From: Rhizobium vallis
GTDB lineage: Bacteria; Pseudomonadota; Alphaproteobacteria; Rhizobiales; Rhizobiaceae
Assembly: GCF_003985155.1 (NCBI RefSeq)
Contig: NZ_ML133686.1
Location: 1-32,000, forward strand
Direction: 5' to 3'
Length of the DNA: 32,000 nt
Below the pieces are notes generated by a model. It saw only the letters and a list, made by a program, of their open reading frames with translations, had not been told where the DNA came from and ran no database searches. A program made the translations under genes and the position numbers. Shown piece after piece: positions 1-11,647 of the stretch. The number at the start of each line of letters is the position of its first letter. Within the stretch, counting starts at the first letter, position 1.

Positions 1-449
1 CCAAAGCCCTGAAGCTCGTGTCGCTGCACGCCAGGAGATCTCCGCAGCGATCGTCCGTGACCTCTTCACTCTCTGGCAGGCGACCCTGCCACGGGTCTCT
101 GGAAAATCCAAACTCGCCGAAGCTCTGCGGTATGCCATCTCGCGTCGAGACATCTTCGAGCGCTTCCTGACCGACGGCCGCATCGAACTCGACTCCAACA
201 TAGTCGAGCGAGCAATCAGACCCCAAGCGATCACGAGGAAAAATAGTCTATTCGCTGGAAGCGACGGTGGCGGCCGGACTTGGGCGACCATCGCGACGCT
301 CCTGCAAACGGCAAAGATGAATGCAGTCGATCCGCAAGCTTGGTTGACCCAGACGCTTGAGCGCCTTGCGAATGGATGGCCCAGCAGTGAAATCGACGCG
401 CTCATGCCATGGAACTACGCCGCCTGAACGGCCACGGCTTGTCGCTTAC
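1..449 (+). mobile_element. Right end of an IS66-family insertion sequence (the element continues left of the window)
   Basis: Carries the 3' end of an IS66-type transposase ORF. The terminus reads ...GTCGCTTAC at 441-449, the reverse complement of the 5'-GTAAGCG start typical of IS66-family terminal inverted repeats. Confidence 0.8.
2..427 (+). CDS. IS66-family transposase (TnpC), C-terminal 141 codons; the 5' part lies outside the window
   Basis: Open frame from the window edge to TGA 425-427. It is absent from the ORF track because it has no start in the window. The translation ...LAEALRYAISRRDIFERFLTDGRIELDSNIVERAIRPQAITRKNSLFAGSDGGGRTWATIATLLQTAKMNAVDPQAWLTQTLERLANGW... matches the conserved IS66 TnpC C-terminus as I recall it. 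Confidence 0.9.
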   Translation, partial: QSPEARVAARQEISAAIVRDLFTLWQATLPRVSGKSKLAEALRYAISRRDIFERFLTDGRIELDSNIVERAIRPQAITRKNSLFAGSDGGGRTWATIATLLQTAKMNAVDPQAWLTQTLERLANGWPSSEIDALMPWNYAA

Positions 450-662
450 CGTGCTATTCCTGACAAGAGCAAACTGGTAGCGGCCCAAAGAGCCCCATGG
501 CGAGAACTGCAGGACTAGCGCTCCGCCTATGACAATGCCCAGCGCGCTAAGCGCAACGATGGCAAGGGGTGATAGGGGGTTAGGTGTGGTCTGACTGGTG
601 GGGGTAGTCCCCGGGCCCTGACGGCGGACCTCAACTCGCTGCTCAAACGTATCTACACTCAT
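402..662 (-). CDS. Small single-TM ORF whose last ~15 codons and stop lie inside the IS66 terminus; probably disrupted by the IS insertion
   Basis: ATG at 662 preceded by AGGGGA 5 nt upstream. One clear hydrophobic helix (PLAIVALSALGIVIGGALVL). The frame crosses the IS end at 449/450. Confidence 0.3.
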   Translation of the reverse strand: MSVDTFEQRVEVRRQGPGTTPTSQTTPNPLSPLAIVALSALGIVIGGALVLQFSPWGSLGRYQFALVRNSTVSDKPWPFRRRSSMA

Positions 663-1350
663 CGGTTTCCCCTAGGCCGTCGCCTGCGGTACGCCCCCGC
701 ATGCCTGGCCATGACCCCTTGTGATCGGGGAGGTAGATAACAGAGCTTAGCCTGTCCCTGGGGCCTTTAGTTCGGTGAACCTGGACATACGCCACAGGCT
801 CCCCGACCTGGAGAAGGTCAAGGATCGGTATCCCTTCCGGTGGGAGACCATACCGCTAAGCTCAGGCTTTCTACGACCCGGAGCGCCGCGTCTGCGCTCT
901 ACATCTTCTTAGGCTATCCCTTGGAGGTTGCCAATATGCCCCCCTAAGAGTGGTGATCTGCCTCACCTAGGTATTGCTAGTCATGGTGCCATCCTAGGGT
1001 GTCCCGGGGTTGCGGTGCCATGGCGGGTGGAGGCAGTGGGGGCCTGAGGACGTGACCTGTGAGGTGTGAGAGCCAAAGGTGTTCGTGCTTGAGGGGGGGG
1101 TAGTATAGCCCTGCCTCCATCAGGTGATATAGTGCAAGGGGGTGGTCAATGGGGCGTAGGTCTGCCTTGATGATTGTATAGGCCAGTGATGTAGAGTGTA
1201 TATCAAGGGACAACGACCGTTGTTGGGGGGGTGAATTGGTGATACCCAAGTAGGGGGTATGTGATGTGTCCTTAACCTATGAAAATATATTATATAATAT
1301 TTTAGATAAACTGGTGACAAATGTCGCCGCTCGGATTATTTTAGTGCCGC
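663..1350 (+). other. ~690-bp ORF-free leader of the island operon: hairpin-rich 5' part, G-run/GTGAT-repeat middle, AT-rich 3' tract
   Basis: No plus-strand ORF of 60 aa or more; the minus-strand ORFs are P/H-rich artefacts of the C-rich complement. G runs of 4 or more occur only on the plus strand: 1006-1009, 1038-1042, 1093-1100, 1138-1142, 1151-1154, 1225-1231, 1253-1257. GTGAT occurs at 721, 953, 1124, 1187, 1239 and 1261, and GTGAC at 1314. Confidence 0.6.
1271..1310 (+). promoter_or_regulatory. AT-rich tract with a putative promoter for the island operon (or a DNA-unwinding element)
   Basis: The 33-nt stretch 1278-1310 contains only 2 G/C. TATAAT at 1293-1298 has CTTAAC at 1271-1276, 16 nt upstream. 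It sits ~50 nt before the first ORF of the operon. Confidence 0.35.
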
Positions 1351-1917
1351 TTGGGTGCCGCAGTGGTATCCGAGATCAACGAAAGGAATAAGCAAATATC
1401 CTACCAACCATCTCCGGCTGTTGACTGGGCTGTGCCAACGCATAAGCTCTTTCTCTCTGTGGCTGGAATCAAGAAGTCTCCGTTTCACGACTCGCAGCAT
1501 GTTTACGCTTGGCGTCTTTTCGCAATTAACGGAGAAATGATCGCGTCGAACGACAAGGCACCATGGGTCCTCTTCGATGGTCCCGATAATCTTGGGCTTT
1601 ACAGTGCTATTGCCGAGGCGCACGCACACCTTCCAAAAGACTCGACGTTAGCGATGTTTGCGCCACAGGAGGAACTACTCCATGTGTTCGGAGAAGGCCT
1701 GGTTAGCCTGAAGCGAAGAGACTTCAGAAAACGCGACAAGAAGCCTTACGTGCATCGTGACCAGATCAAAGCCGTCTACGATCTGGCGGTCGAAAGCGAG
1801 ATAGAACTTTTAGCCCTCAATCCACATTCGAGCGACGAGCACGAAAATCGCGGTTTGATTGGGGATTTCGCTAGGGATCGTTTGCGTGAAGCGATTAACC
1901 GAGACGTAAATGGCTGA
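1351..1917 (+). CDS. Hypothetical protein, RNase HI-like by motif order but with a degenerate active site
   Basis: 188-aa ORF with TTG start (start uncertain; GTG at 1363 is an alternative). Segments NLGLYSAIAEAHAHL, KRRDFRKRDKKPYVHRDQI and HSSDEHENRGLIGDFARD line up by eye with E. coli RnhA [36 protein letters not shown] and HAGHPENERCDELARA. The stop overlaps the next gene's start by 8 nt. Confidence 0.55.
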   Translation: MGAAVVSEINERNKQISYQPSPAVDWAVPTHKLFLSVAGIKKSPFHDSQHVYAWRLFAINGEMIASNDKAPWVLFDGPDNLGLYSAIAEAHAHLPKDSTLAMFAPQEELLHVFGEGLVSLKRRDFRKRDKKPYVHRDQIKAVYDLAVESEIELLALNPHSSDEHENRGLIGDFARDRLREAINRDVNG

Positions 1918-2665
1918 AGACTTACTCAGGGGGCGTCGCAGCAATGCGGCGCTTTCTCTGGAGATTACCCAACAGCGGCGATGTGCAGCGCTCGGATGCC
2001 GCCGGCAAGTGGAAGTAGCCGAAGGGACCGGCCTTGCTCGCTACCACTGCCGCTATCACGTCCAGCATAAGTCCCGGCACGGCTCTCATTGGCACGCGAC
2101 CTATAAGGCGTCTGAGCTGCGGCCCTACGTGCAGAGCGCGGAACGGTGGATTAAGGAACACCGGGAGGACTCGACTTATCGCGGGACCTATTGGGAGCTG
2201 GAGCACTTCATGGCGGGCGTGGGGCGTGCTGATGTGGCGATGAACTTGCGGGGACAGTCGGCAGAGTATCGCGCTCGGGTTGCCTTTGCGCGTCTGAGGG
2301 CGGCGGAAATTCCCACTCGGCGGCTCATAGCCATCTATCTCGGAGTCTCAGCTCTTATAGAGGATGATTTCGGCAGTCACCGCACCCGGGAGTTCCGAAT
2401 TGTGCAAGCCGCCAAGGCCGTGCACAGGCTGGCCAGCGGCACCCACCGCAAATGGGACGTTTGGGACCCTCGCACTGGCGGCACCCGCAAAGCCGAGCTT
2501 CACGCCTATCCTCGCTCATCAGGGCACGTCCTGAGGAAGATCGGGGAGGTGTTGGAAAAGGCATGCGACGAGCTAGCCCGCGCTGTGGTGCCCGAGGTCA
2601 TTGCAATGCGTACTGAGCGCTTCGGACCACATCCATCTCACCAGCCTGTCGCCAAGGCGTCCTGA
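1910..2665 (+). CDS. Hypothetical protein with an N-terminal Cys/His cluster (possible zinc ribbon)
   Basis: 251-aa ORF. ATG 1910 overlaps the upstream stop (ATGGCTGA), indicating translational coupling. Contains CAALGC-x17-HCRYH-x2-H. No family recognised. Confidence 0.6.
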   Translation: MAEDLLRGRRSNAALSLEITQQRRCAALGCRRQVEVAEGTGLARYHCRYHVQHKSRHGSHWHATYKASELRPYVQSAERWIKEHREDSTYRGTYWELEHFMAGVGRADVAMNLRGQSAEYRARVAFARLRAAEIPTRRLIAIYLGVSALIEDDFGSHRTREFRIVQAAKAVHRLASGTHRKWDVWDPRTGGTRKAELHAYPRSSGHVLRKIGEVLEKACDELARAVVPEVIAMRTERFGPHPSHQPVAKAS

Positions 2666-2707
2666 TTAACAGCAAAGTCCTCACCGCCGTCTGATCACCT
2701 GGCGGAG

Positions 2708-4033
2708 GTGGGGACGCACATGTTGGAGGCTACCTTGGATATTCGAACTCCATCTCGACGGATGCACCTGAAAGACGGCACCGCCAACCAAGCCGAGCGG
2801 GGAAAGGTCCAGCATTTCGACCCGTGGCTGGTGGCCAACGGGACTAACCTCGTAGAACTCGTAGATTGCCTCTTCTCTGTGTTGACCCCGCCGCCTATTA
2901 CCCCAGGCAGACGGCATAGGGCGGACGCGATTGCACGAAGGAAGGCGTGCGCTGAGGCGCTTATCGCAAACCTTGTAATGGCCGCGCTTGGGCCAAGCCG
3001 GAGTCCCGACCTCGTATTGCCGCTGAGGAAGCTGAAGCGTAGCCGTTATGATCGCGAGGACGTGAGCCCCAATGGCCTTCGCTGGGCAACGGCTGAGTTG
3101 GCAGCTTACGGCTACGTTGAGGTGGAAGCAGCGGTCTATAAGGAGGAAAGGACCAGGCTTATTCCCACGCTGAATTTCGTATCGTTGTTAAATCGGCACG
3201 GGGTCAAGAGAGAGGATGTCGGACGAGCTAGAGGCGACGAAACCATCGTGCTTCAAGCGGAAGTAGACCACGAAAAAGTCTTGGTTGACTACCGAGACAC
3301 ACCAGAGACCATAACGCTTCGGGGAGAGATGTCCGCGATAAACGAGGCCCTCGAGAAAGCCGATATCCGTTTCGATGGCGAGAAGCTGGGACCGATCCAC
3401 CTTAGCCGACGGTTCGATGCTGGGAACTCGGCCGCCCCCTACAGCTTCGATCAGCATGGACGGCTTTACGGTGGCCTCTGGGAAAGCCTGCCACGTGTGG
3501 AGCGTCATCGTCTGACCATCGGCGGTGAAACGGTGGCTGACCTCGATTTCTCGTCGATGTTCGTCCGTCTTGCTTATGTAAGGCGGGGCGTGGTTCCGCC
3601 GGACGAGGACCTCTACGCCATACCGGGGCTGGAGCATCATAGAGAAGGGGTCAAGCGCGTTATCGCTTCGCTGTTCTTCCGTGAATCGGAATCGAAGAGA
3701 CTTCCACGCGATGCCAAACCGCTGCTGCCCGAAGGCTGGACAATGGCGCGAGTTCGGAATGCAATTGCTCATGCACATCCTGCTATTGCCCCCTTATTAG
3801 ACACCGATGTGGGCTTTGAGCTAATGGCGACTGAGAGCAACCTGCTCGTGGCTATACTGCTCGATCTGTTCTCGCAAGGCGTCGTCGCGCTCCCAATGCA
3901 TGACGGCCTTATGGTGCCGGAAAGCAAAAAGGAAATTGCCGTCGAGACAATGAAAAGGGTTAGTCTATCGAAGCTCGGCGTTAGCCTTCCAGTGACGGAA
4001 AAGCAAATTCCTCAACCTAGCCAAGCGGCGTAA
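2708..4033 (+). CDS. Compact family-A DNA polymerase / T7-like RNAP-related palm-fingers protein (putative polymerase or replication protein)
   Basis: 441-aa ORF (GTG 2708, or ATG 2720 with GGAGG at 2704-2708). Ordered motifs: GRLYGG..SLPR, ADLD(280)FSSMFVRLAY (motif A-like), R(312)EGVK(316)RVIASLFF (O-helix/motif B-like), LPMH(398)D(399)GLMV (motif C-like). Confidence 0.6.
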   Translation: MGTHMLEATLDIRTPSRRMHLKDGTANQAERGKVQHFDPWLVANGTNLVELVDCLFSVLTPPPITPGRRHRADAIARRKACAEALIANLVMAALGPSRSPDLVLPLRKLKRSRYDREDVSPNGLRWATAELAAYGYVEVEAAVYKEERTRLIPTLNFVSLLNRHGVKREDVGRARGDETIVLQAEVDHEKVLVDYRDTPETITLRGEMSAINEALEKADIRFDGEKLGPIHLSRRFDAGNSAAPYSFDQHGRLYGGLWESLPRVERHRLTIGGETVADLDFSSMFVRLAYVRRGVVPPDEDLYAIPGLEHHREGVKRVIASLFFRESESKRLPRDAKPLLPEGWTMARVRNAIAHAHPAIAPLLDTDVGFELMATESNLLVAILLDLFSQGVVALPMHDGLMVPESKKEIAVETMKRVSLSKLGVSLPVTEKQIPQPSQAA

Positions 4034-4326
4034 ATAACTTGCCCCTATAGCCTCTGGGGCGGGCCTAGAGTAATGGCCTTCATGTTTAGACCCCATCATC
4101 ACCTTCAGCTTAGAGGCAAGCTTCAAACTGCATAGAGGACACTGGAGGCCCTATCTCAAAGTGACCAACTTAAAGCCGCCTCTTCGTTCCCTTGCTGCTC
4201 TGTCCCTGGGGGAGCAGATGATTGATAGGCGATCTACCATCCCGGCGATGGCGCAGGGTCAATCCTTGCGTCTGCCACTAGGAGCCTTAAAGTCTGGCCC
4301 ACAGGTGGCCATTGGCGGGGGGAGTG

Positions 4327-4686
4327 ATGGGGTCTAACGTTTACAGGAAACTACTGCTGGGATGGGCCGTGCTGCCCCTCGTAGGCGCACCACATGCTTA
4401 CGCCTGCGATCAGCCCATTGTGCTATCCAACTGGAAGTCATGCGCAGTGGGGCCTTTGAGCGAAACCGGAGGCGATGCCGATTGGAAAGCCGTCCCGAAG
4501 TGGACCCGAAGCAAAGACCTTAGGCCCTGGTTTATGGACGATCCCCGCCTGCTCGCCAATCATGGTCTGTGTAACGCCAAGTTCCATCGGGTCGTGCTTT
4601 GTGCGCCGGGATGGCAGGAGAGCGACGATAAGGACGCTTGCTGGTACACGATTTGCAGCGGCTACCAGGCATCATTGGGGAATTGA
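4327..4686 (+). CDS. Small secreted Cys-rich protein
   Basis: ATG 4327 after GGGGGGAG; the ORF track starts at TTG 4312. Signal-peptide-like N-terminus MGSNVYRKLLLGWAVLPLVGAPHAYA followed by 7 Cys in the mature part. No family recognised. Confidence 0.5.
   Translation: MGSNVYRKLLLGWAVLPLVGAPHAYACDQPIVLSNWKSCAVGPLSETGGDADWKAVPKWTRSKDLRPWFMDDPRLLANHGLCNAKFHRVVLCAPGWQESDDKDACWYTICSGYQASLGN
4552..4612 (+). repeat. Direct repeat copy A (inside the Cys-rich protein gene)
   Basis: 61 nt, ungapped, 50/61 identical to 5858-5918. Includes an exact 20-mer TTCCATCGGGTCGTGCTTTG at 4582-4601. Confidence 0.85.
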
Positions 4687-4744
4687 AGGCGGGCGTGATC
4701 CCGGCGACTAGACAAGCTTTGCTGTTGCTGCTCAACCTCGCGTT

Positions 4745-5815
4745 ATGTCCGACCGGTTGATTCTCCTTAGTAATGATGGTGCGCAGCTCAATGCCAACGT
4801 TGAGATGCATGAGAGAGGACTCATCCTGCATAGTCGAAGCGGGACGGACCGTAACCGCGATTACCGCGCGGCACTCGAATTGCTGCTGTCCCGGTTAGAT
4901 CAAGCGCAGATCGTCTACCGAGTTTATCTGGACAGCCGGCCGGTTCAGGGGGTCAATCTTTCCGACCGCGAGCTTTCCTTTGATCGTATGTCGCCTGTCG
5001 GAGCGCGTTTTGACGAACTTGTGCGGGCGATGAATAAGGGCAGCTCCAGCCGTGGCGCTTGGCGGCGGCTTTTGATCGAAACCCCCGGCACAGGGCCTGC
5101 GCGGCTCCGCGAAGTCGCAGAAGGCAAATCCAATATAATCCGCCTTCCTGCCACCGACTTGAGGAAGGTCCTACCGTCCCATATCCATAAGGCAGTCCAG
5201 AAGCTTCTTGACGGCGGTGATGCCCCTAACTTTGCTCCATCAAGGGACTATGACGCTTTGACCAGTACGGGCATACCCCTTGCACCAAAGAAAGTATTCG
5301 GTCTGGCTCTTGAGGAAGCATTGGGAATAGAAGCTCATCCTCGACACTTTAGCGCCGGATGGGGTCAAATCTGTTTCGAACTCCTCGAAGAGGCTGGCCT
5401 ATGGATCGTTCCGAAGAAGGAGGGAATTGCCCGGCCCAAGCCCAGCCATGTGGAAATTACGGCAGAGTTGGCCGATCTTGTACCGACCGATGAGGAGCGC
5501 AGTTGGATTGAGGGTAATCCGAAGATCGCATCCCATTTGAGACGTGAAAGACATCCTGGCTTGGCGAAGGAAAAGCGAGCGCAATTCATCGCAGAGCATG
5601 GGCGGCTCTTCTGTGAAGACTGCAAGCTCGATCCTGTCAAACTCTATGGCGAGGAAGCAGGCTCAGCGTGCATCGAGATGCACCACCATATAACGCACGT
5701 GGCAAAGATGCAGGCCGGCCACAGGACGAGGATGGAAGACCTGAAGTGCTTATGCGCGAATTGCCATCGCGTTTTGCACCGCAAGCTCGCTTTAGGGCTC
5801 ACGGTTACGTTCTGA
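4745..5815 (+). CDS. HNH endonuclease-domain protein (McrA-type HNH at the C-terminus, ~270-aa unassigned N-terminal region)
   Basis: 356-aa ORF. The C-terminus CEDCKLD...IEMHHHITHV...MEDLKCLCANCHRVLHRK is a CxxC...HH...CxxCH HNH/His-Me finger signature. Confidence 0.8.
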   Translation: MSDRLILLSNDGAQLNANVEMHERGLILHSRSGTDRNRDYRAALELLLSRLDQAQIVYRVYLDSRPVQGVNLSDRELSFDRMSPVGARFDELVRAMNKGSSSRGAWRRLLIETPGTGPARLREVAEGKSNIIRLPATDLRKVLPSHIHKAVQKLLDGGDAPNFAPSRDYDALTSTGIPLAPKKVFGLALEEALGIEAHPRHFSAGWGQICFELLEEAGLWIVPKKEGIARPKPSHVEITAELADLVPTDEERSWIEGNPKIASHLRRERHPGLAKEKRAQFIAEHGRLFCEDCKLDPVKLYGEEAGSACIEMHHHITHVAKMQAGHRTRMEDLKCLCANCHRVLHRKLALGLTVTF

Positions 5816-5857
5816 TGTGATGGGCAAAATCACCAAGTTGAGGATGGTCATGGGCTC

Positions 5858-5918
5858 CTCGCCAACGACAGTTTGTATAACGGCAATTTCCATCGGGTCG
5901 TGCTTTGAACGGCGGGAT
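5858..5918 (+). repeat. Direct repeat copy B (intergenic, 43 nt after the HNH stop); relic of a paralogous Cys-rich protein gene
   Basis: Same phase as copy A. It translates to LLANDSLYNGNFHRVVL* versus LLANHGLCNAKFHRVVLC in copy A. Exact 20-mer at 5888-5907. Confidence 0.85.
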
Positions 5919-5944
5919 CGTAACAAAAAGGTAGGGGAAGAAGG

Positions 5945-6595
5945 TTGAAGGCACAAATTCAAGCCAATTACGAAAAAAGGCTAAAGCGTTATGCCGCGCT
6001 TGTTCACGGGAATGAGCCGCTGGGGTTGGTTGCGAAGCTGGCGACATATTCATCTCTCTTGAAGCAGCATAAGCTCCATGGTGATGGGCTCCTCAAGATC
6101 GAACCATTGCTTTATCCACTTATCCAGGCTGTAGAGATTGATCTTCATCTTGCCGTGGCAAAGTTGCTCGAAGATCCAAAACGAAGCGACAGAAGTTTGT
6201 TTAAATTTCTCGAATTTTGCCTCACGAACCGGACAAACATTTCGTGGCAAGGAAAAGAGATTTCAGAGGACCTATTATTAAACCAACGTCAACAATTGGA
6301 AACGCATCGCACAACAATCAACAGCGTGATGGGCCGAAGAGATAAATTCTTTGCTCACCTCGACAAGCGTTACTTCAATGAGCCGTCGCGCATCTACACC
6401 GACTTTCCCTTGAGAGAAGAGGAAGTTATAGCTCTGGCGAACTGCGTGATTGGTGTCGTCTCATCTCACCAGACCAATCTCGGTTCGGCCGTCAGTTTCC
6501 ATGCCGGCGAGTTCTATACAATAGCTGTAGAAAATATGGTGCGAAATCTGGAAGCTGGGCGAAAAATGAACTTTCCGGGCCAACTTGAACAATAA
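5945..6595 (+). CDS. HEPN-like (Rx5H) Abi-type protein, putative RNase / abortive-infection effector
   Basis: 216-aa ORF with TTG start after GGGGAAGAAGG. Largely helical-looking. Motif GR(131)RDKFFAH(138)LD fits the R-x4-6-H HEPN signature seen in AbiU2-like families. This is the lowest-GC gene in the window. Confidence 0.45.
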   Translation: MKAQIQANYEKRLKRYAALVHGNEPLGLVAKLATYSSLLKQHKLHGDGLLKIEPLLYPLIQAVEIDLHLAVAKLLEDPKRSDRSLFKFLEFCLTNRTNISWQGKEISEDLLLNQRQQLETHRTTINSVMGRRDKFFAHLDKRYFNEPSRIYTDFPLREEEVIALANCVIGVVSSHQTNLGSAVSFHAGEFYTIAVENMVRNLEAGRKMNFPGQLEQ

Positions 6596-6626
6596 GAGTG
6601 TCAGCGACCACGGTGACGGCGTTGTT

Positions 6627-6893
6627 TTAGTCCGCAGCGTTCGCCTCACATCCGGGGCACTCGTCACCGTAGTCATTCAGCACATTCTGCAACTTATGTC
6701 GAATGGCCTCCTCATTCTCTGAGGACTCCTGGCGTCCTGCCAGTACAGCGTCTTCGAACGCCGAGGAGTCCATCTGATCAACAAGATAGCCATGAAGTTC
6801 GCATTCTTTGAGAGCGCCCGCATCCAACAGCATTGATTCCGCCCACTGGCGGTCAGCTTCGAGGTCCTCCAAAAGCCTTTTTGATCCGCTCAT
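6627..6893 (-). CDS. Small acidic hypothetical protein (88 aa) ending in CPGC
   Basis: Internal ATG 6893 was chosen over the 175-aa ORF-track version. The N-terminal extension of the longer version is Ser-rich and overlaps a better plus-strand ORF. Confidence 0.35.
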   Translation of the reverse strand: MSGSKRLLEDLEADRQWAESMLLDAGALKECELHGYLVDQMDSSAFEDAVLAGRQESSENEEAIRHKLQNVLNDYGDECPGCEANAAD

Positions 6894-7026
6894 TTCCGCA
6901 TCTCCAGGTTTAAAATCGCTATCGCTGAAACATAGGTTATTTCTAGGCGTTTTATAGTCACCATCTTCGATACTGGAAATACCAGAACGGTATTTGAGTT
7001 GTCGTTTCAAGGAATATGAGGATCGT

Positions 7027-7332
7027 ATGGAGCCAATCAAAGTTATCCGCAAAATTGCGGAAGCGATAGATAAATCAGTAGAAGAGACGTCTGACGTGCC
7101 GTGGAAAAATGCAGTCGAAGCTGGAGGCCTCATTTCGATGGGGGACACCGGCACAATTGGAATAGATGAGTGCTTCCAGCGCAGTTTCGGTCCATTGCTG
7201 CTTCAGTTCCAGTACAAGTGGTGGGATACCACGAAGACCTTTAGCCCCGGTCCGGACAGAACACGACTCACCCTTACTCTGCTACATGGAAGTCAGGAAA
7301 TTTCGAAGTACAGCGGAACATACGACACCTAG
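7027..7332 (+). CDS. Hypothetical protein (101 aa)
   Basis: ATG 7027 with GAGGA 4 nt upstream. Divergent from the 6893 gene across a 133-bp AT-rich spacer. No family recognised. Confidence 0.3.
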   Translation: MEPIKVIRKIAEAIDKSVEETSDVPWKNAVEAGGLISMGDTGTIGIDECFQRSFGPLLLQFQYKWWDTTKTFSPGPDRTRLTLTLLHGSQEISKYSGTYDT

Positions 7333-7374
7333 CGTGCAAAGGATGTCGGGCTCCTCCTGGAGTTGGGAAATCAC

Positions 7375-8742
7375 TTAGGCAGGCAGCCTAACAGCCTCGA
7401 CGCATCGGCGAGCCTGCTCAAGCAGCGGCCCCCCAGAGTACACTCCAAAGGTCATTCCTTGCCGCTTATGGCCAACAACGACAGCAATAGTGCTCTCCGG
7501 CTGCCCTGCCTGCTCTGCCTTGGTGATGAACCAGCGACGGAAGCTGTGGAAGTTTACGAGACCCCTACGCTTGCCCTCGCGCCTGTCCTCCACGCCAACA
7601 CTGCGACGATATGCTGTAAACTCGTTTGATGTCTTAAAGGACCGCTCACGCAGGGAATCCGATTTTTTTACGCCGGGCCACTCGGGGAAGATGTCATCCT
7701 CAGGTCCTTTGCCCTTCTTCCGGCGCTCAACGATTTCGACTAGGTCAGGGTGGATTGGGCAGAGACGTGGCCCCGGCTCTTTCTTTTGGGGCTTGAACAC
7801 GAACACCCCATCATCTCGGCAGTCCTTCACCTTGAGGCACACAATGGCATCCAGGCGGGCTCCGGAAAGGGCAGCGATCCTCATTAGGTCATCCATCGCC
7901 GGCTCGGCGGGCCCTTTCAGCAAAGTCTTGACTTCCTCGTCGGTAAACGGGCGCTCCTTCTGGTCGGTGGTCTGTCGAGGCTCACGCAAGCGCCGTCCTT
8001 GCCAAATGTTGGAATCGACCTCGTGCCGGTTCTCCAGCCAAGTCCAGTAGACCGAGAGGCGGCTAACGTATTTGTTGAGGGTGACAGGAGTAAGATTGGC
8101 GGTGAGGCTTGGAAGCTCATCACAGAACCGAACGGCCTCCTTCTTGGTCATCACCTGAAGATAGGGCGGCACACCTGCTTTGCTGCACCAATCCTTCAAG
8201 AGTTTTATTGCTCGCTTATCGTCCGCCAATGTGCGGGCCTTAACGTGCGAAGCCGCTAGAAACTTTTCATGGTGAAGGTCGATCGGCGTTCTGTCTCCGC
8301 GCGCTGACCGGGAGAAATCCTTAGCAAGGCGTAAGCGCTCGGGGTCGAAAACTTCATGGCCCTCCTCGTCGGTGGCAATGGGCTTGCCTGCGAGGGATTC
8401 CGCCTGCCAGTCGATCTCCTCATCAATCTCGTCTCGCCGCTCCGGATCGAACGCACTCTTGCGCTGCTCGGCAAATCGAACGGCCTGCTGCATTGCCTGC
8501 TCTCGGCTTATATATCGGGCGGTCTCCAACGATAGAGATGGATTTTCCGCGTGAGCAATGGTCGCTTTGAGGTCCGCTATGACATCCCATTTGAGGCGGT
8601 TTGCCTCCTTAAGGCTGTCAGTCCCCAACGATCTTTTAAGCTTCGTCCCAAGTTTGCCATGAAGCTCTTTCGGCACGTTGACGACAACGCGATACTGATT
8701 GCCGTGGCGTTCTAAAAACATGCGATCAGAAGAGAGGGCCAC
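7375..8742 (-). CDS. int: Tyrosine recombinase / integrase of the island
   Basis: C-terminal catalytic region with ...ALSGARLDAI...(R), HSFRRWF (H-x-x-R), VVGHKRQGMTFGVYS (H...Y). The N-terminal MFLERHGNQYRVVVNVPKEL arm-binding-type domain is common in alphaproteobacterial integrases. Start is ambiguous: GTG 8742 (GGAGG 5 nt upstream), ATG 8721 or TTG 8754. Confidence 0.9.
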   Translation of the reverse strand: MALSSDRMFLERHGNQYRVVVNVPKELHGKLGTKLKRSLGTDSLKEANRLKWDVIADLKATIAHAENPSLSLETARYISREQAMQQAVRFAEQRKSAFDPERRDEIDEEIDWQAESLAGKPIATDEEGHEVFDPERLRLAKDFSRSARGDRTPIDLHHEKFLAASHVKARTLADDKRAIKLLKDWCSKAGVPPYLQVMTKKEAVRFCDELPSLTANLTPVTLNKYVSRLSVYWTWLENRHEVDSNIWQGRRLREPRQTTDQKERPFTDEEVKTLLKGPAEPAMDDLMRIAALSGARLDAIVCLKVKDCRDDGVFVFKPQKKEPGPRLCPIHPDLVEIVERRKKGKGPEDDIFPEWPGVKKSDSLRERSFKTSNEFTAYRRSVGVEDRREGKRRGLVNFHSFRRWFITKAEQAGQPESTIAVVVGHKRQGMTFGVYSGGPLLEQARRCVEAVRLPA

Positions 8743-8752
8743 TAAAGCCTCC

Positions 8753-8773
8753 AAGTACCCAAGAAAGTACCCA
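8753..8773. repeat. Two direct AAGTACCCA 9-mers, 12 bp apart, at the integrase 5' end
   Basis: Exact copies at 8753-8761 and 8765-8773. TACCCAAG also occurs at 1243-1250 in the island leader. Confidence 0.6.
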
Positions 8774-8864
8774 TATCTAGTCCCGCAGGTGGCTGAATTT
8801 CAATAAGGATTTGACGCAGAAGAGAAATTATTCGGACAAGGTTGTCTCCCGCTTAGCTCCACCA

Positions 8865-8969
8865 GCCTACGCTCTTCGAGCTTCGGCTCGGCAAGCCGGA
8901 AGGCTTGACGTGACGAAGGCGAGAAGGAAAGCGGAGGCTGCCGCGCCGAAGTTGCGAAGCAACGTAGGC
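8865..8969. repeat. ~105-bp imperfect palindromic element between the integrase and the GIY-YIG gene
   Basis: Outer arms GCCTACG (8865-8871) / CGTAGGC (8963-8969), CTTCG/CGAAG and CTTCGGC/GCCGAAG. Inner hairpins CAAGCC-GGAA-GGCTTG and GCGG-AGGCTG-CCGC. Confidence 0.6.
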
Positions 8970-8985
8970 GGGCTATGATCCTTCC

Positions 8986-9225
8986 ATGAAGTATGTGTAC
9001 ATTCTCTGTAGTGTCGAATTTCCGGATCGCTATTACGTCGGCGTGACCGGTGACCTGAAGTCGCGCTTGGCAAAACACAATGCCGGTGAAGTCTCACATA
9101 CCTCGAAATACGTCCCCTGGTCTCTCAAGACCTACCTCGCTTTCTCCGATGAAGCGCAGGCCTTTGCTTTCGAGAAGTATTTGAAATCGGCGTCGGGCAG
9201 GGCATTCGCAAAGAAAAGACTCTAA
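8986..9225 (+). CDS. Small GIY-YIG nuclease-superfamily protein
   Basis: 79 aa. KYVYILCS...RYYVGVTGDLKSRLAKHN is the GIY-(x)-YVG...R..H motif set of stand-alone GIY-YIG (UPF0213-like) proteins. Confidence 0.8.
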   Translation: MKYVYILCSVEFPDRYYVGVTGDLKSRLAKHNAGEVSHTSKYVPWSLKTYLAFSDEAQAFAFEKYLKSASGRAFAKKRL

Positions 9226-9278
9226 CCCTCCCCATCAACGCCGGCAGGCCGCCCCCACAGCCCGCCGGCGCTTGCGCC

Positions 9279-9515
9279 TCACATCTCGACGATAGCAGCC
9301 GTCACCCGCTTTACCACCGGCAGCACCAATAGCAGAACGGGAAAGGCGATAGCCCAGGACAGCGCCCATGCGGAAGGCCACATGGCGAGTGCGGGCGCGG
9401 TCAGGCCTTGTGCTCTCAGAATGCTGATCGCCGAGACGACTGATGTCATCAGCAGCGAGAGGATGAGCGGCATGACGATTGTATTATAGCGTTTGGGGAG
9501 TTTGCCTTTGGGCAT
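9279..9515 (-). CDS. DUF2798-type small membrane protein
   Basis: ATG 9515 (GGAG 7 nt upstream) gives MPKGKLPKRYNTIVMPLILSLLMTSVVS... with two TM helices. The ORF track extends to 9545. Confidence 0.65.
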   Translation of the reverse strand: MPKGKLPKRYNTIVMPLILSLLMTSVVSAISILRAQGLTAPALAMWPSAWALSWAIAFPVLLLVLPVVKRVTAAIVEM

Positions 9516-9689
9516 TTTGATCTCCGTAAGATGCCGATCAGACAACTGCGCAGCGCCGACCGGCGGGTTGCGCGTTGATTGACGTAAACGCTTACGGAGC
9601 TTCGATCTGAAGCGACGCCGTTCTTATGGCCGAAAACATGTTGCCGTTCAAGTCCGCCGGGCCGCATCCCGGATCGCCCTCATCGAACT

Positions 9690-9863
9690 TGTTGCCGCGA
9701 TCCCAGCGATTCGCCTTCCTCAGCCGATGAGCAGAGCAGGACGCCGCCGTGTCATCCACACCGGACGAGCCGACGGGGCTTGCCTCGTCGGCTCGATCTC
9801 GTTTCTCGCGGCGTGACAGATGCGTCCGGTCTTCTGCTCACCGGCGATTTTAGATCCCTCAAG
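9690..9863 (+). pseudogene. Frameshifted fragment duplicating the 5' UTR and first ~45 codons of the DUF1275 gene
   Basis: About 80% identical by eye to 11605-11788. ATG 9727 corresponds to ATG 11648. The frame is broken after ~29 codons and homology ends at the PEBP gene 3' end. Confidence 0.75.
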
Positions 9864-9901
9864 ACAATCCGATGGACCGCAACCGCGATCCAAAACCGGC
9901 C

Positions 9902-10444
9902 TCAGCGGCCGTAGGTGACCTCGACGGAGGCTTTGCCGAGTGTATTGGCCCTGACATAGAAGCCGACCATGGCGGCAGGCGCCGTATTCGGCAGCGGAAG
10001 CTTGTCGACCGACAGCGCGTAGACCGTGAACTGATAGTGGTGCGGTTTGTCGCTGGCCGGCGGGCATGCGCCGCCATATCCTGAGGTGCCGAAGTCGGTG
10101 CGGCCTTCCACGACGCCTTCGGGAAGCTTCTTGTCGCCGCTTGCGCCAGTGGCAATCTTCGAGACGTTCGCCGGGATGTTGAAGACCGACCAGTGCCACC
10201 AGCCCGAGCCGGTCGGGGCATCCGGATCGTAGGCCATGACGGCGAAACTCTTGGTGCCCTCGGGAGCGCCGGACCAGGCGAGGTCAGGCGAGATGTTCTT
10301 GCCGGAGCAGCCGAAGCTGTTGAAGACCTGCGCGTCGGCCATGGGCTTGCCCGCGGTCAGATCCGTCGAAGTGAGCTTCATTTCCGCCTGTGCGGCCGTG
10401 GCGCCGATAAGGGACGTTGCGAGAAGTGCTGTGATGAAACGCAT
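9902..10444 (-). CDS. YbhB/YbcL-family PEBP (Raf kinase inhibitor-like) periplasmic protein
   Basis: ATG 10444 (AGGAAAG upstream) gives signal peptide MRFITALLATSLIGATAAQA. Contains the motifs YDPDAPTGSGWWHW and PPASDKPHHYQFTVYAL. Confidence 0.85.
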   Translation of the reverse strand: MRFITALLATSLIGATAAQAEMKLTSTDLTAGKPMADAQVFNSFGCSGKNISPDLAWSGAPEGTKSFAVMAYDPDAPTGSGWWHWSVFNIPANVSKIATGASGDKKLPEGVVEGRTDFGTSGYGGACPPASDKPHHYQFTVYALSVDKLPLPNTAPAAMVGFYVRANTLGKASVEVTYGR

Positions 10445-10482
10445 GTTGCTTTCCTGCGGTTGATGATGCCGCAGAGCTATCG

Positions 10483-11337
10483 TCACGGGGAAAGCACGTC
10501 TGCCCCGCTATGCTCAACTTCTGCCCCGATCCGCTCAACTGGCTCGGATCCGCTGCGCACATGGCGCGGACTGACCCCGAACCGCTCCTTGAAGCGCGCC
10601 GCGAATTGAGACGGCGAGTCGTAGCCGACTTCGAGAGCAACCTGCGCCATGGAAAGGGCCGTCATCTGAACGAGGCCCAAGGCCCGGTTCATCCGTGTAT
10701 CGCTCAGGATCTCGCTGAAGCCGGTATTCTCGGCCGCGAGTCTGCGCCTGAGCGTCGCTTCACTCATGTTGAACGAGCGTGCCGCATGCCGCAGCGTCCA
10801 GCCGAAGGCCGGATCGGTTTCAATCATCTGTCGGAGTCGGTCTTCGAGCCGAGGGCTTCGGCTTTGGCCCAACACCGCCCCGCACAGTGCAAACCAGGTG
10901 ATGAGCTCCATCAAGCGAGCCCTGGCGATGGCGCCGGGAAGCCTGGCGAGATTGCCGGGCTGACAGCAATATTCGAACAAAACAGCCGCTTCATCGGGCA
11001 TGTGGGAAGACCGCGCGGGAAGGGGTGTCGACGGGACGGCGATCGAGCCCATGCGGGCATAGGCTTCCTCGAACAATTGTCTGGGAACAGGGAGCGCCAC
11101 GGTCTGATACTGTTGCGGAGCCTTTGGAATGTTTTCCATCGTCAGCGGTTGATAATCGGGCAGCAGGCCATATGCGCCGGCATCCAGCCGCAAAGGCTTG
11201 TCGTCTGCCATGACGATCTTCGTTCCCGATTGCACCCGTATCAACAAGGGGCTCGTATTGACGATGCGACGAAAACAGGCCCGCCCGCCCTGTCGGATCA
11301 GGGCTCCGGTTGGAATGAGAAAATTCTGATGCTCCAT
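10483..11337 (-). CDS. AraC-family transcriptional regulator
   Basis: C-terminal double HTH (...FNMSEATLRRRLAAENTGFSEIL...MAQVALEVGYDSPSQFAARFKERFGVSP). ATG 11337 (GGGGAA upstream) is preferred; the ORF-track start is 11427. Confidence 0.85.
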   Translation of the reverse strand: MEHQNFLIPTGALIRQGGRACFRRIVNTSPLLIRVQSGTKIVMADDKPLRLDAGAYGLLPDYQPLTMENIPKAPQQYQTVALPVPRQLFEEAYARMGSIAVPSTPLPARSSHMPDEAAVLFEYCCQPGNLARLPGAIARARLMELITWFALCGAVLGQSRSPRLEDRLRQMIETDPAFGWTLRHAARSFNMSEATLRRRLAAENTGFSEILSDTRMNRALGLVQMTALSMAQVALEVGYDSPSQFAARFKERFGVSPRHVRSGSEPVERIGAEVEHSGADVLSP

Positions 11338-11444
11338 ACTTTCCCCAGCTATACGGGATGGCGGCTCATAAGCTCCGTCTGCCAGATCGCGCGACCGAAG
11401 CCAAGATGGCGAATAGCACAAGGCCATTCTGGCAATTCGCTAGC

Positions 11445-11516
11445 GCATGCCACGCAAAAGTGTGCAGCGGTTTGCGATTACGGCATGCGGGAACCAAAAG
11501 CCCCTAAAGCGCGGCA
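11445..11516 (+). repeat. Intergenic hairpin element, copy E1
   Basis: GCATGCC (11445-11451) pairs with GGCATGC (11482-11488). Inner stem CGCAAA/TTTGCG. Conserved loop AGTGTGCAGCGG. The tail ...CCTAAAGCGCGGCA is shared with E3. Confidence 0.7.
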
Positions 11517-11647
11517 AGCGAACAGGAAAGATCGCGGCGCGCTTTCAAATATTTTCTGCCCATTCCATCGCCTTTGCCAATTCCTCAATGAGAGGATCTA
11601 TCCTTATTGCCGCAATCTCAGCGATTCGGCTTCAGGACCTTCAGCCA

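Follow-up and report, generated by a model that had tools for sequence, protein, structure and literature searches.

Introduction

To our knowledge, nearly all known primases belong to the DnaG or AEP family. A cut-down Pol I with a small partner, the CcPol-MP pair, can also prime, and a primase-polymerase activity has been predicted for a class of minimal polymerases called TV-Pol. The subject of this study is a locus of Rhizobium vallis at the start of contig NZ_ML133686.1 (RefSeq assembly GCF_003985155.1), of which positions 1 to 32,000 of the forward strand were analysed; this stretch of 32,000 nucleotides is called the window, and its start is the contig edge. Here three genes follow each other on the same strand: ORF188, ORF251 (100% identical to EFQ99_00015) and ORF441 (100% identical to EFQ99_00020). 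They are preceded by a G-rich non-coding leader and, before that, by a conserved structured element (Table 1). ORF441 encodes a predicted minimal family-A polymerase and ORF251 its conserved partner, a helical protein with a zinc knuckle. We estimate at about 0.6 the probability that these two proteins constitute a two-subunit primase-polymerase of the TV-Pol type, serving replication or establishment of the genomic island that carries them.

CcPol-MP comes from the cassette SCCmec and consists of a truncated family-A polymerase and the small partner MP; primer-independent DNA synthesis by the pair has been shown (PMC7581432, PMC10061031, PMC10201439), and it is MP that converts CcPol into a primase (PMC7581432, PMC10201439). 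The PolA-SSB primases are confined to Bacillota and are always linked to a helicase (PMC10061031). TV-Pol was described computationally (Iyer, Abhiman and Aravind 2008, Biol Direct 3:39; PMC2579912) as a minimal polymerase of 400-600 residues related to family A, marked by a hairpin arginine, two palm aspartates, a fingers aspartate and an RxxxK motif, and devoid of nuclease domains. In a subset that includes alphaproteobacterial members, an all-helical module is fused to the N-terminus or encoded next door, and these genes accompany a resolvase, a lambda-type integrase or a transposase; the activity predicted for the class would serve replicative mobile elements (PMC2579912).

An earlier reading of this DNA, made from the sequence without database searches (the original prediction), presented the three genes as a candidate undescribed module; a polymerase with a helical partner appears to be what was described as the TV-Pol class in 2008 (PMC2579912). 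The group to which ORF441 belongs is not listed in the sections consulted of two recent surveys of bacterial family-A polymerases (PMC10201439, PMC12926913). No Pfam domain of reverse transcriptases, as found in retrons and defence-associated reverse transcriptase (DRT) systems, was detected in ORF188, ORF251 or ORF441.

ORF441, a predicted minimal family-A polymerase

In the AlphaFold2 model of ORF441 (predicted local distance difference test score, pLDDT, 86.4; predicted template modelling score, pTM, 0.85), an N-terminal domain is followed by thumb, palm and fingers, and the palm superposes on that of Pol I-type structures. Searching the Protein Data Bank (PDB) with Foldseek gave 76 matches at E <= 1e-3. 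All of the 50 listed are family-A (Pol I-type) DNA polymerases, Bst, Taq and the apicoplast polymerase among them, and no T7-type RNA polymerase is present in these 50. Two resemblances had originally been proposed for ORF441: the one to family-A polymerases is borne out, together with the invariance of the two aspartates singled out at the time (Asp280 and Asp399, see below), while the one to T7-type RNA polymerases finds no support from Foldseek. The best structural matches, the Pol I large fragment (Klenow, Bst, Taq) and the apicoplast polymerase, have the palm and fingers and motifs A, B and C in common with ORF441. Compared with these, both exonuclease domains are missing from ORF441, which is about half the size and 12-16% identical in sequence. 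Pfam contains no exonuclease or DNA_pol_A family matching its 441 residues, and exonuclease domains are not encoded by the neighbouring genes either.

Arg234, Asp280, Asp301, Arg312, Lys316, His398 and Asp399 are invariant in ORF441 and its homologues (22 diverse homologues, 38-82% identity). Arg234, the hairpin arginine, is located in the strand formed by residues 233 to 237 of the model. Asp280 lies in the motif DLDFxSMFxRLAY and His398 and Asp399 in ALPMHDG, with Arg312 and Lys316 making up an RxxxK motif between them. At the position of the steric-gate glutamate of motif A, the alignment suggests Phe285. Judging from the model and these motifs, we are confident that ORF441 is a minimal, Pol I-like family-A polymerase in which all catalytic motifs have been kept. 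Within its N-terminal 190 residues, a unit of helices and strands looks like a winged helix; this reading is based on the model, on a match to phrog_35787 and on one homologue being named a MarR-family regulator.

Sequence comparison places ORF441 at some distance from characterised families. No Pfam, NCBIfam or PADLOC model matches it, and sequence and profile searches of the PDB gave nothing significant. Relatives are found among phage proteins: phrog_4756, a family with no assigned function, is matched with an E value of 1.7e-24, and in a library of viral structures the model has full-length matches to phage proteins of 400-450 residues (E 1e-17 to 1e-22, TM-score up to 0.70). The replication protein of the Zamilon virophage, a TV-Pol-helicase protein, is also matched structurally (E 1.2e-4). 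When phage genomes were searched with tblastn, only weak, partial matches to Vibrio phages appeared. A match to a Thioclava plasmid turned out to be a copy truncated by IS21 and was set aside as uninformative. A profile search of 1.84 billion cluster representatives found 9159 at E <= 1e-3, although some of the weaker matches may come from family-A polymerases of the ordinary sort; at E <= 1e-30 there are 1726. Some of the UniRef homologues carry the name 'DNA-directed DNA polymerase family A palm domain'.

ORF251, a zinc-knuckle partner conserved beside the polymerase

The N-terminus of ORF251 contains Cys25, Cys30, Cys47 and His50 in the spacing C-x4-C-x16-C-x2-H, followed by the residues RHGSHW. 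Cys25, Cys47 and His50 are invariant in its homologues and Cys30 nearly so, in agreement with the initial view of ORF251 as a Cys/His-cluster protein. In the AlphaFold2 model (pLDDT 81.6), the body is almost entirely helical, with a single beta-hairpin. Neither sequence nor profile comparison with the PDB gave a significant match, and Pfam, NCBIfam and PADLOC returned nothing usable. The Q protein of phage 21 is the best fold match of the model, but with an E value of 0.29 it was rejected as chance.

Homologues of ORF251 number 422 and occur in the same taxa as those of ORF441. In a census by hidden Markov model of 24 polymerase genes with at least 900 nt of upstream sequence, a homologue of ORF251 lies directly upstream of the polymerase, on the same strand, in 16; in one further locus it is located 830 nt away. 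Locus tags of the two homologues are adjacent in three genomes. In P0255, a protein of 667 residues encoded on a Logan contig of 6560 bp, an ORF251-like N-terminus (37% identity to ORF251, E 4e-39) is fused to an ORF441-like C-terminus via a linker rich in serine and glutamate. ORF251 is the conserved partner of the polymerase, and the conserved unit is this pair and not the trio with G-rich leader that had been envisaged: the pair is conserved in comparisons of gene neighbourhoods, ORF188 has few homologues (see below) and the leader occurs only together with ORF188. We infer that ORF251 and ORF441 form a complex.

The coordinates first given for the three open reading frames (ORFs) were borne out, as were the 8-nt overlap of the first two and the gap before ORF441, which measures 42 nt if the GTG is taken as start and 54 nt if counted up to the first ATG. 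The start annotated for ORF441 by NCBI is the ATG at 2762.

A candidate primase-polymerase for island replication or establishment

The pair carries the marks of TV-Pol. The palm of ORF441 contains the two metal-binding aspartates, Asp280 and Asp399; Arg234, Asp301 and R312xxxK316 correspond to the hairpin arginine, the fingers aspartate and the RxxxK motif; and an exonuclease domain is neither fused nor linked to the polymerase. The context agrees as well, with the helical ORF251 adjacent or fused, an integrase in the island and a resolvase in its relatives. A D5-like helicase, on the other hand, was not found in the island, although many TV-Pols are linked to a helicase. Several features of this locus are not part of the TV-Pol description: a zinc knuckle in the partner, a winged-helix-like unit at the N-terminus of the polymerase, tRNA-Ala as the target, and both ORF188 and its G-rich leader. 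We therefore regard ORF441 and ORF251 as a putative TV-Pol-type pair, a membership that is proposed from shared features and structure and not from a direct match to a published member such as Sputnik V13, CcPol or the Brucella and Loktanella proteins.

The only analogue that has been tested is CcPol-MP, in which, as here, a family-A polymerase and a small partner are part of the backbone of an integrative element and lie beside a recombinase. The region studied here is the conserved backbone of an integrative Rhizobiaceae island of 12-14 kb, which its DUF6538-type integrase inserts into the 3' end of tRNA-Ala(GGC). ORF251 and ORF441, co-transcribed, would be the functional core in the form of a two-protein polymerase, probably a primase-polymerase. 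ORF251 would supply recognition of the template or origin, as MP does for CcPol. The pair would initiate DNA strands and elongate them, with the island as template in its excised, circular state or as transferred single-stranded DNA, after which host enzymes would take over. Such a pair would be expected to have primase activity, to use deoxynucleoside triphosphates (dNTPs) and to act in replication of the island.

Several observations weigh against a primase-polymerase of this kind. The link drawn here between the pair and published TV-Pol members is structural and not at the level of sequence, the virophage match of ORF441 is no stronger than its match to Pol I, and TV-Pol pairs of this branch would seem to be known from computation alone. 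The fusion in P0255 is a single metagenomic observation. There are also differences from CcPol-MP. The sequence of CcPol closely resembles that of Pol I, but ORF441 matches nothing in Pfam or among PDB sequences. MP has an OB fold and its gene follows that of the polymerase; ORF251, a helical protein with a zinc knuckle, is encoded upstream, and the fold search with it gave no match to an OB fold. CcPol-MP is also always accompanied by a co-operonic helicase of COG3378 or DUF927 and by serine recombinases. No such helicase was found here; more generally, no helicase family was recognised when the ORFs of the island in the window and the tested ORFs of two related islands, L018 and L140, were searched (L-numbered loci are relatives taken from genomes or metagenome contigs), and no replication gene besides the pair was found among the island ORFs. 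An iteron-type origin, with at least three direct repeats of 17-22 nt by an AT segment, is not present in the leader. Finally, there are defence genes in the same island.

If the function of the pair were shown, it would reveal how plant-associated bacteria come to keep or acquire defence islands targeted to tRNA genes, and a small DNA polymerase that needs no primer might be gained from it. The ORF441 family is large and common in rhizobia and has a partner different from that of CcPol, helical and with a zinc knuckle, and no helicase.

The pair within a tRNA-Ala island

A complete tRNA-Ala(GGC) gene is located at one end (the left) of the island in L018, L140, L142 and L002, and a 21-nt repeat of the 3' end of this gene lies beside the integrase, at the opposite end, in L018, L140 and L002. 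These borders, together with the 18-nt copy at the corresponding place in the window, indicate that the trio is part of a tRNA-Ala island of 12-14 kb. A search of the window for tRNA and tmRNA genes found none; the left part of the island has been lost here to a copy of IS66 and to the assembly break. L018, L140 and L142 have one gene order in common. It begins with the tRNA, variable genes, a resolvase and a small ORF on the minus strand and continues with the structured element, leader, ORF188 (where present), ORF251, ORF441, variable cargo, integrase and direct repeat; the resolvase is upstream of the module in all three. The integrase occupies the same island end in the relatives and is 90% identical in L018 and 65% identical in L002 and L003.

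The slot between polymerase and integrase (4745-7154 in the window) differs in gene content among the window, L018, L140 and L142, and looks like a cargo or defence hot spot. It also holds uncharacterised proteins, of 117 and 442 residues in L018 (11600-13500) and of 242, 394 and 198 residues in L140 (9865-12335).

The setting originally predicted for the module, an island in which HNH and HEPN genes are its neighbours, holds true; the island carries an integrase, and the HEPN gene is of the AbiU2 type. With AbiU2 and a type IV restriction-like HNH protein as neighbours in the window, AbiJ and an HD protein in L018 and AAA_15/AAA_21 proteins in L140, the pair might itself be an anti-phage or anti-plasmid defence module, which would synthesise nucleic acid upon infection, or deplete or modify nucleotides, in the manner of the systems based on reverse transcriptases. 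The polymerase family is, moreover, a very large one, with members in mobile elements as well as phages. We nevertheless consider a defence role, the principal rival reading, quite unlikely. The place of the pair beside the integrase is fixed while the defence genes change, which is the behaviour of a backbone and not of cargo; no PADLOC model matches ORF188, ORF251 or ORF441; related minimal polymerases are present at full length in phage genomes; and the sole analogue with a tested function is a replication primase. Since the pair forms a fixed backbone, the defence genes vary and no defence model matches, we prefer replication or establishment to defence, and the anti-phage hypothesis of the original prediction is left unsupported.

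ORF188 and the G-rich leader

Only 10 homologues of ORF188 were found, and all come from Rhizobium and the related Neorhizobium. The gene is located upstream of ORF251 in the window, in L140/L141 and in L142. Divergent ORF188-like genes (about 30% identity) directly precede the polymerase in L002 (7424-7969) and L003 (3475-4011), where ORF251 is absent, and the two families may be alternative partners of the polymerase. Translation of ORF188 may in fact begin at a GTG (1432) or an ATG (1537) within the frame; the NCBI product has 126 residues.

ORF188 was at first taken for an RNase HI-like protein that had lost most of its catalytic acidic residues. An NCBIfam model for RNase HI does match, partially and weakly (E 0.0018), and one database entry is labelled 'ribonuclease HI'. 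By eye, blocks of the size of secondary structure elements can be aligned with E. coli RNase HI, with non-acidic residues at the positions of D10, E48 and D70, but this is a lead only. In two alignments with RNase H, hhalign gave a probability of 1-3% over 21-37 residues, Smith-Waterman comparison with shuffled sequences gave a z-score of 1.8, and no Pfam match or PDB sequence or profile match was found, even with divergent relatives included. The RNase HI-like nature of ORF188 is unproven.

The leader contains G at a fraction of 0.34 and C at 0.18, with seven G runs of at least four; over about 950-1250, G amounts to 34-51% and C to 12-22%. GGGGG occurs in 10 copies, against 0.5 expected from its density in the window, and GTGAT in six, against 0.9, so the enrichment noted at the outset is real. 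The region was also correctly said to be free of ORFs, no plus-strand ORF of at least 50 aa being present in 663-1350. To call it repeat-laden was an overstatement: the search for iterons and tandem repeats found two-copy repeats of up to 13 nt and an AT-rich 12-mer at 2.2 copies, and no iteron family. No four-run G-quadruplex motif is present even with loops of up to 12 nt allowed, and the folding energy is unexceptional (z = -0.58). Downstream of the G-rich stretch follow a block of 40 nt at 1271-1310 with 87.5% A+T and the conserved sequence TGGTGACAAA, which has a promoter-like site, GTGACA-17-TATTTT, at 1314-1342. L140 and L142, both of which carry ORF188, share this composition, the AT block and TGGTGACAAA with its promoter-like site; L001, L018, L002 and L003 lack them. 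The leader sequence itself is poorly conserved in L140 and L142 despite its composition being kept. ORF188 and the leader are a subgroup-specific operon head outside the conserved mechanism, since both are absent from most relatives of the polymerase pair.

In the original prediction, leader and genes were combined into a replicon similar in logic to ColE1 or mitochondrial CSBII. The leader would form an R-loop or G-quadruplex, ORF188 would process or hold it in the manner of RNase H, and ORF441 would extend the product or act as a T7-like RNA polymerase. The strong G-richness of the coding strand, followed by an AT-rich block, is compatible with this, as are the retention of the leader composition in two other ORF188-bearing islands examined and the weak RNase H match and annotation of ORF188. 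The likeness to ColE1 RNA II and CSBII ends with the G-rich stretch upstream of a polymerase gene and the faint RNase H resemblance; within the polymerase family at large, no such leader is conserved. Most relatives of the pair have neither leader nor ORF188, which are thus not core, the leader has neither a G-quadruplex motif nor exceptional folding, and the conserved promoter-like site lies downstream, not upstream, of the G-rich stretch. Profile and PDB searches do not support RNase H homology of ORF188, and the structural matches of ORF441 are DNA polymerases, not T7-type RNA polymerases. Such a replicon is highly improbable. What survives of the hypothesis is the replication role as such, which is the most plausible one; RNase H, G-quadruplex, RNA polymerase match and leader conservation do not.

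A conserved structured element upstream of the leader

The leader had been treated as one unit, which missed that its first 245 nt (656-903) are a separate structured element. The element adjoins the start codon of a divergent ORF on the minus strand (402-662) and lies about 450 nt upstream of ORF188. By blastn, it is 78-90% identical in L001, L002, L003 and L018, with sharp borders, whereas the ORF441 proteins of L001-L003 are just 44-52% identical.

RNAalifold predicted 68 base pairs from five copies, 10 of them with compensatory changes. A covariance model, R1, built from these five aligned copies finds the element in 129 places (86 and 43 in two sets of loci, which come from a metagenome scan for the invariant 19-mer of the element and comprise at least 120 contigs). 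In the R1 alignment, 91.4% of the cells are paired and 46 of the 68 pairs show compensatory double changes. Cells changed on both sides number 660, against 191 +/- 14 in shuffles, and controls with the structure slid along the alignment reach at most 49% pairing. The covariance-model alignment is needed for this: on a plain MAFFT alignment of 66 copies, RNAalifold recovered 14 pairs. G-U pairs (193) and A-C pairs (212) do not allow a strand to be assigned to the element. Single-sequence folding of leader and element is unremarkable (z -0.6 to -1.5).

Rfam gave no match at E <= 1 over positions 1-10000; the sole match at E <= 10 over 600-1350 was a spurious long non-coding RNA (lncRNA) at 945-1049, outside the element. 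The core 19-mer has no match in viral contigs, and a literature search found no mention of the core sequence. The element is apparently undescribed and the newest thing in the interval. In PLSDB it is present on 152 alphaproteobacterial plasmids, of which 121 are conjugative; Rhizobium and Agrobacterium are the hosts in most cases. With strong covariation, no Rfam family and this distribution, it merits a study of its own. It is a separate unit and not specific to the polymerase module: only 7 of the 46 element-bearing loci with enough flanking sequence carry the polymerase.

The element is always next to a divergent gene, often one for an XRE-type helix-turn-helix (HTH) or RovC-type regulator. 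On the same strand beyond it, metagenome loci encode ArdC, ParB-like (ParB_N) proteins or the ORF251-ORF441 pair. In the Agrobacterium plasmid pAt1 it is situated between virB11 and genes for ParB-like, antirestriction (Antirestrict-family) and DUF932 proteins; in pMNOD01 it precedes a ParB-like gene on the same strand; and in one plasmid of Rhizobium its neighbour is an HTH regulator, at a distance from the transfer genes. This resembles Frpo and ssi, single-stranded promoters and initiation signals in the leading regions of enterobacterial plasmids, which are likewise non-coding, heavily paired, 250-330 nt long and sometimes present in several copies on one plasmid (Masai and Arai 1997; Samuel 2024, PMC11541004), and are located on the same strand upstream of antirestriction and ParB-like early genes of conjugative plasmids (PMC11541004). 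There is no sequence similarity to them, however, and the element also occurs outside transfer regions and always beside a divergent gene. No -35/-10 pair was recognised by eye in its stems, as would be looked for in Frpo. A regulatory RNA of a divergent switch region and a promoter or initiation signal in single-stranded DNA like Frpo/ssi are equally good explanations.

The position of the element before the operon brings up a narrower role for the pair, as an establishment function and not a vegetative replicase: after mobilisation of the island as single-stranded DNA by a conjugative plasmid, it would be expressed early, and would prime and make the complementary strand in the recipient. 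Plasmid primases with a role in establishment are known, Sog of ColIb-P9 and TraC of RP4. The genes that the element precedes in pAt1 and pMNOD01 are of the leading-region type, and those for ArdC and ParB_N in metagenome loci fit the same pattern. Yet neither a relaxase nor an oriT was recognised in the island, the element is also found beside plain host-type genes and away from transfer genes, and the polymerase is rare among element-bearing loci. We hold this role to be distinctly improbable.

The element and the pair can be joined in a broader proposal, in which the element would represent a class of structured signal that has gone undescribed so far and that conjugative plasmids and islands of alphaproteobacteria have in common, either a promoter or priming site in single-stranded DNA or a regulatory RNA. 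It would drive early expression of, or initiate for, the ORF251-ORF441 primase-polymerase. The whole would then be a self-contained system of establishment that arrives, primes and copies, with the pair as a third kind of primase. We offer this tentatively, considering it on balance unlikely.

Group II intron domains (RF00029, RF01999) are located 70-230 nt from the element, on the opposite strand, in L083 (2360-4105) and L091 (7485-7560), and the element may be an insertion target of such introns.

Other features of the window

Table 1. Positions of the features discussed, in the window unless another locus is named
Feature	Position	Strand	Remarks
IS66-family transposase, C-terminal part	1-427		at contig edge; DDE_Tnp_IS66 E 1.8e-25, IS66_C E 5.5e-17
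Conserved structured element, about 245 nt, non-coding	656-903	not assigned	covariation, sharp borders
Copy of the element in L001	6146-6405
Copy of the element in L002	6599-6857
Copy of the element in L003	2629-2887
Copy of the element in L018	8266-8527
Copy of the element in L142	6241-6500
G/T-rich, C-poor non-coding leader	911-1350	+	ends in AT block, TGGTGACAAA and promoter-like site
ORF188	1351-1917	+	accessory protein, lineage-restricted
ORF251	1910-2665	+	polymerase partner; 8-nt overlap with ORF188
ORF441	2708-4033	+	predicted minimal family-A polymerase, putative TV-Pol type
ORF124, small Cys-rich protein	4312-4686	+	downstream of polymerase; 87% identical and in same position in L018, the closest relative
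HNH / type IV restriction-like protein	4745-5815	+	Pfam, PADLOC
HEPN AbiU2 protein	5945-6595	+	Pfam, PADLOC
Lambda ea8.5-like protein	6627-7154	-	Pfam/PADLOC
DUF6538-type tyrosine integrase	7375-8754	-	Pfam PF20172, PF00589
attR, 18-nt copy of the tRNA-Ala(GGC) 3' end	8847-8864	+	TCCCGCTTAGCTCCACCA; right end of the island

ORF124, which follows the polymerase, has 124 residues, is rich in cysteine and tryptophan and has a hydrophobic N-terminus; a Pfam search assigned it to no family. At the other end of the module, the minus-strand ORF at 402-662 is probably also cut by IS66, its homologues in L001 and L018 being 118-134 residues long.

In L018, the island is directly followed by a DUF1275 gene. 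In the window, about 2.8 kb of extra DNA (8865-11620) separate attR from this gene. They carry a PEBP-family gene and an AraC-type regulator, and positions 9734-9865 are a second copy, 73.5% identical, of the region upstream of the DUF1275 gene. The extra DNA may have arisen by another insertion at this site or by its rearrangement.

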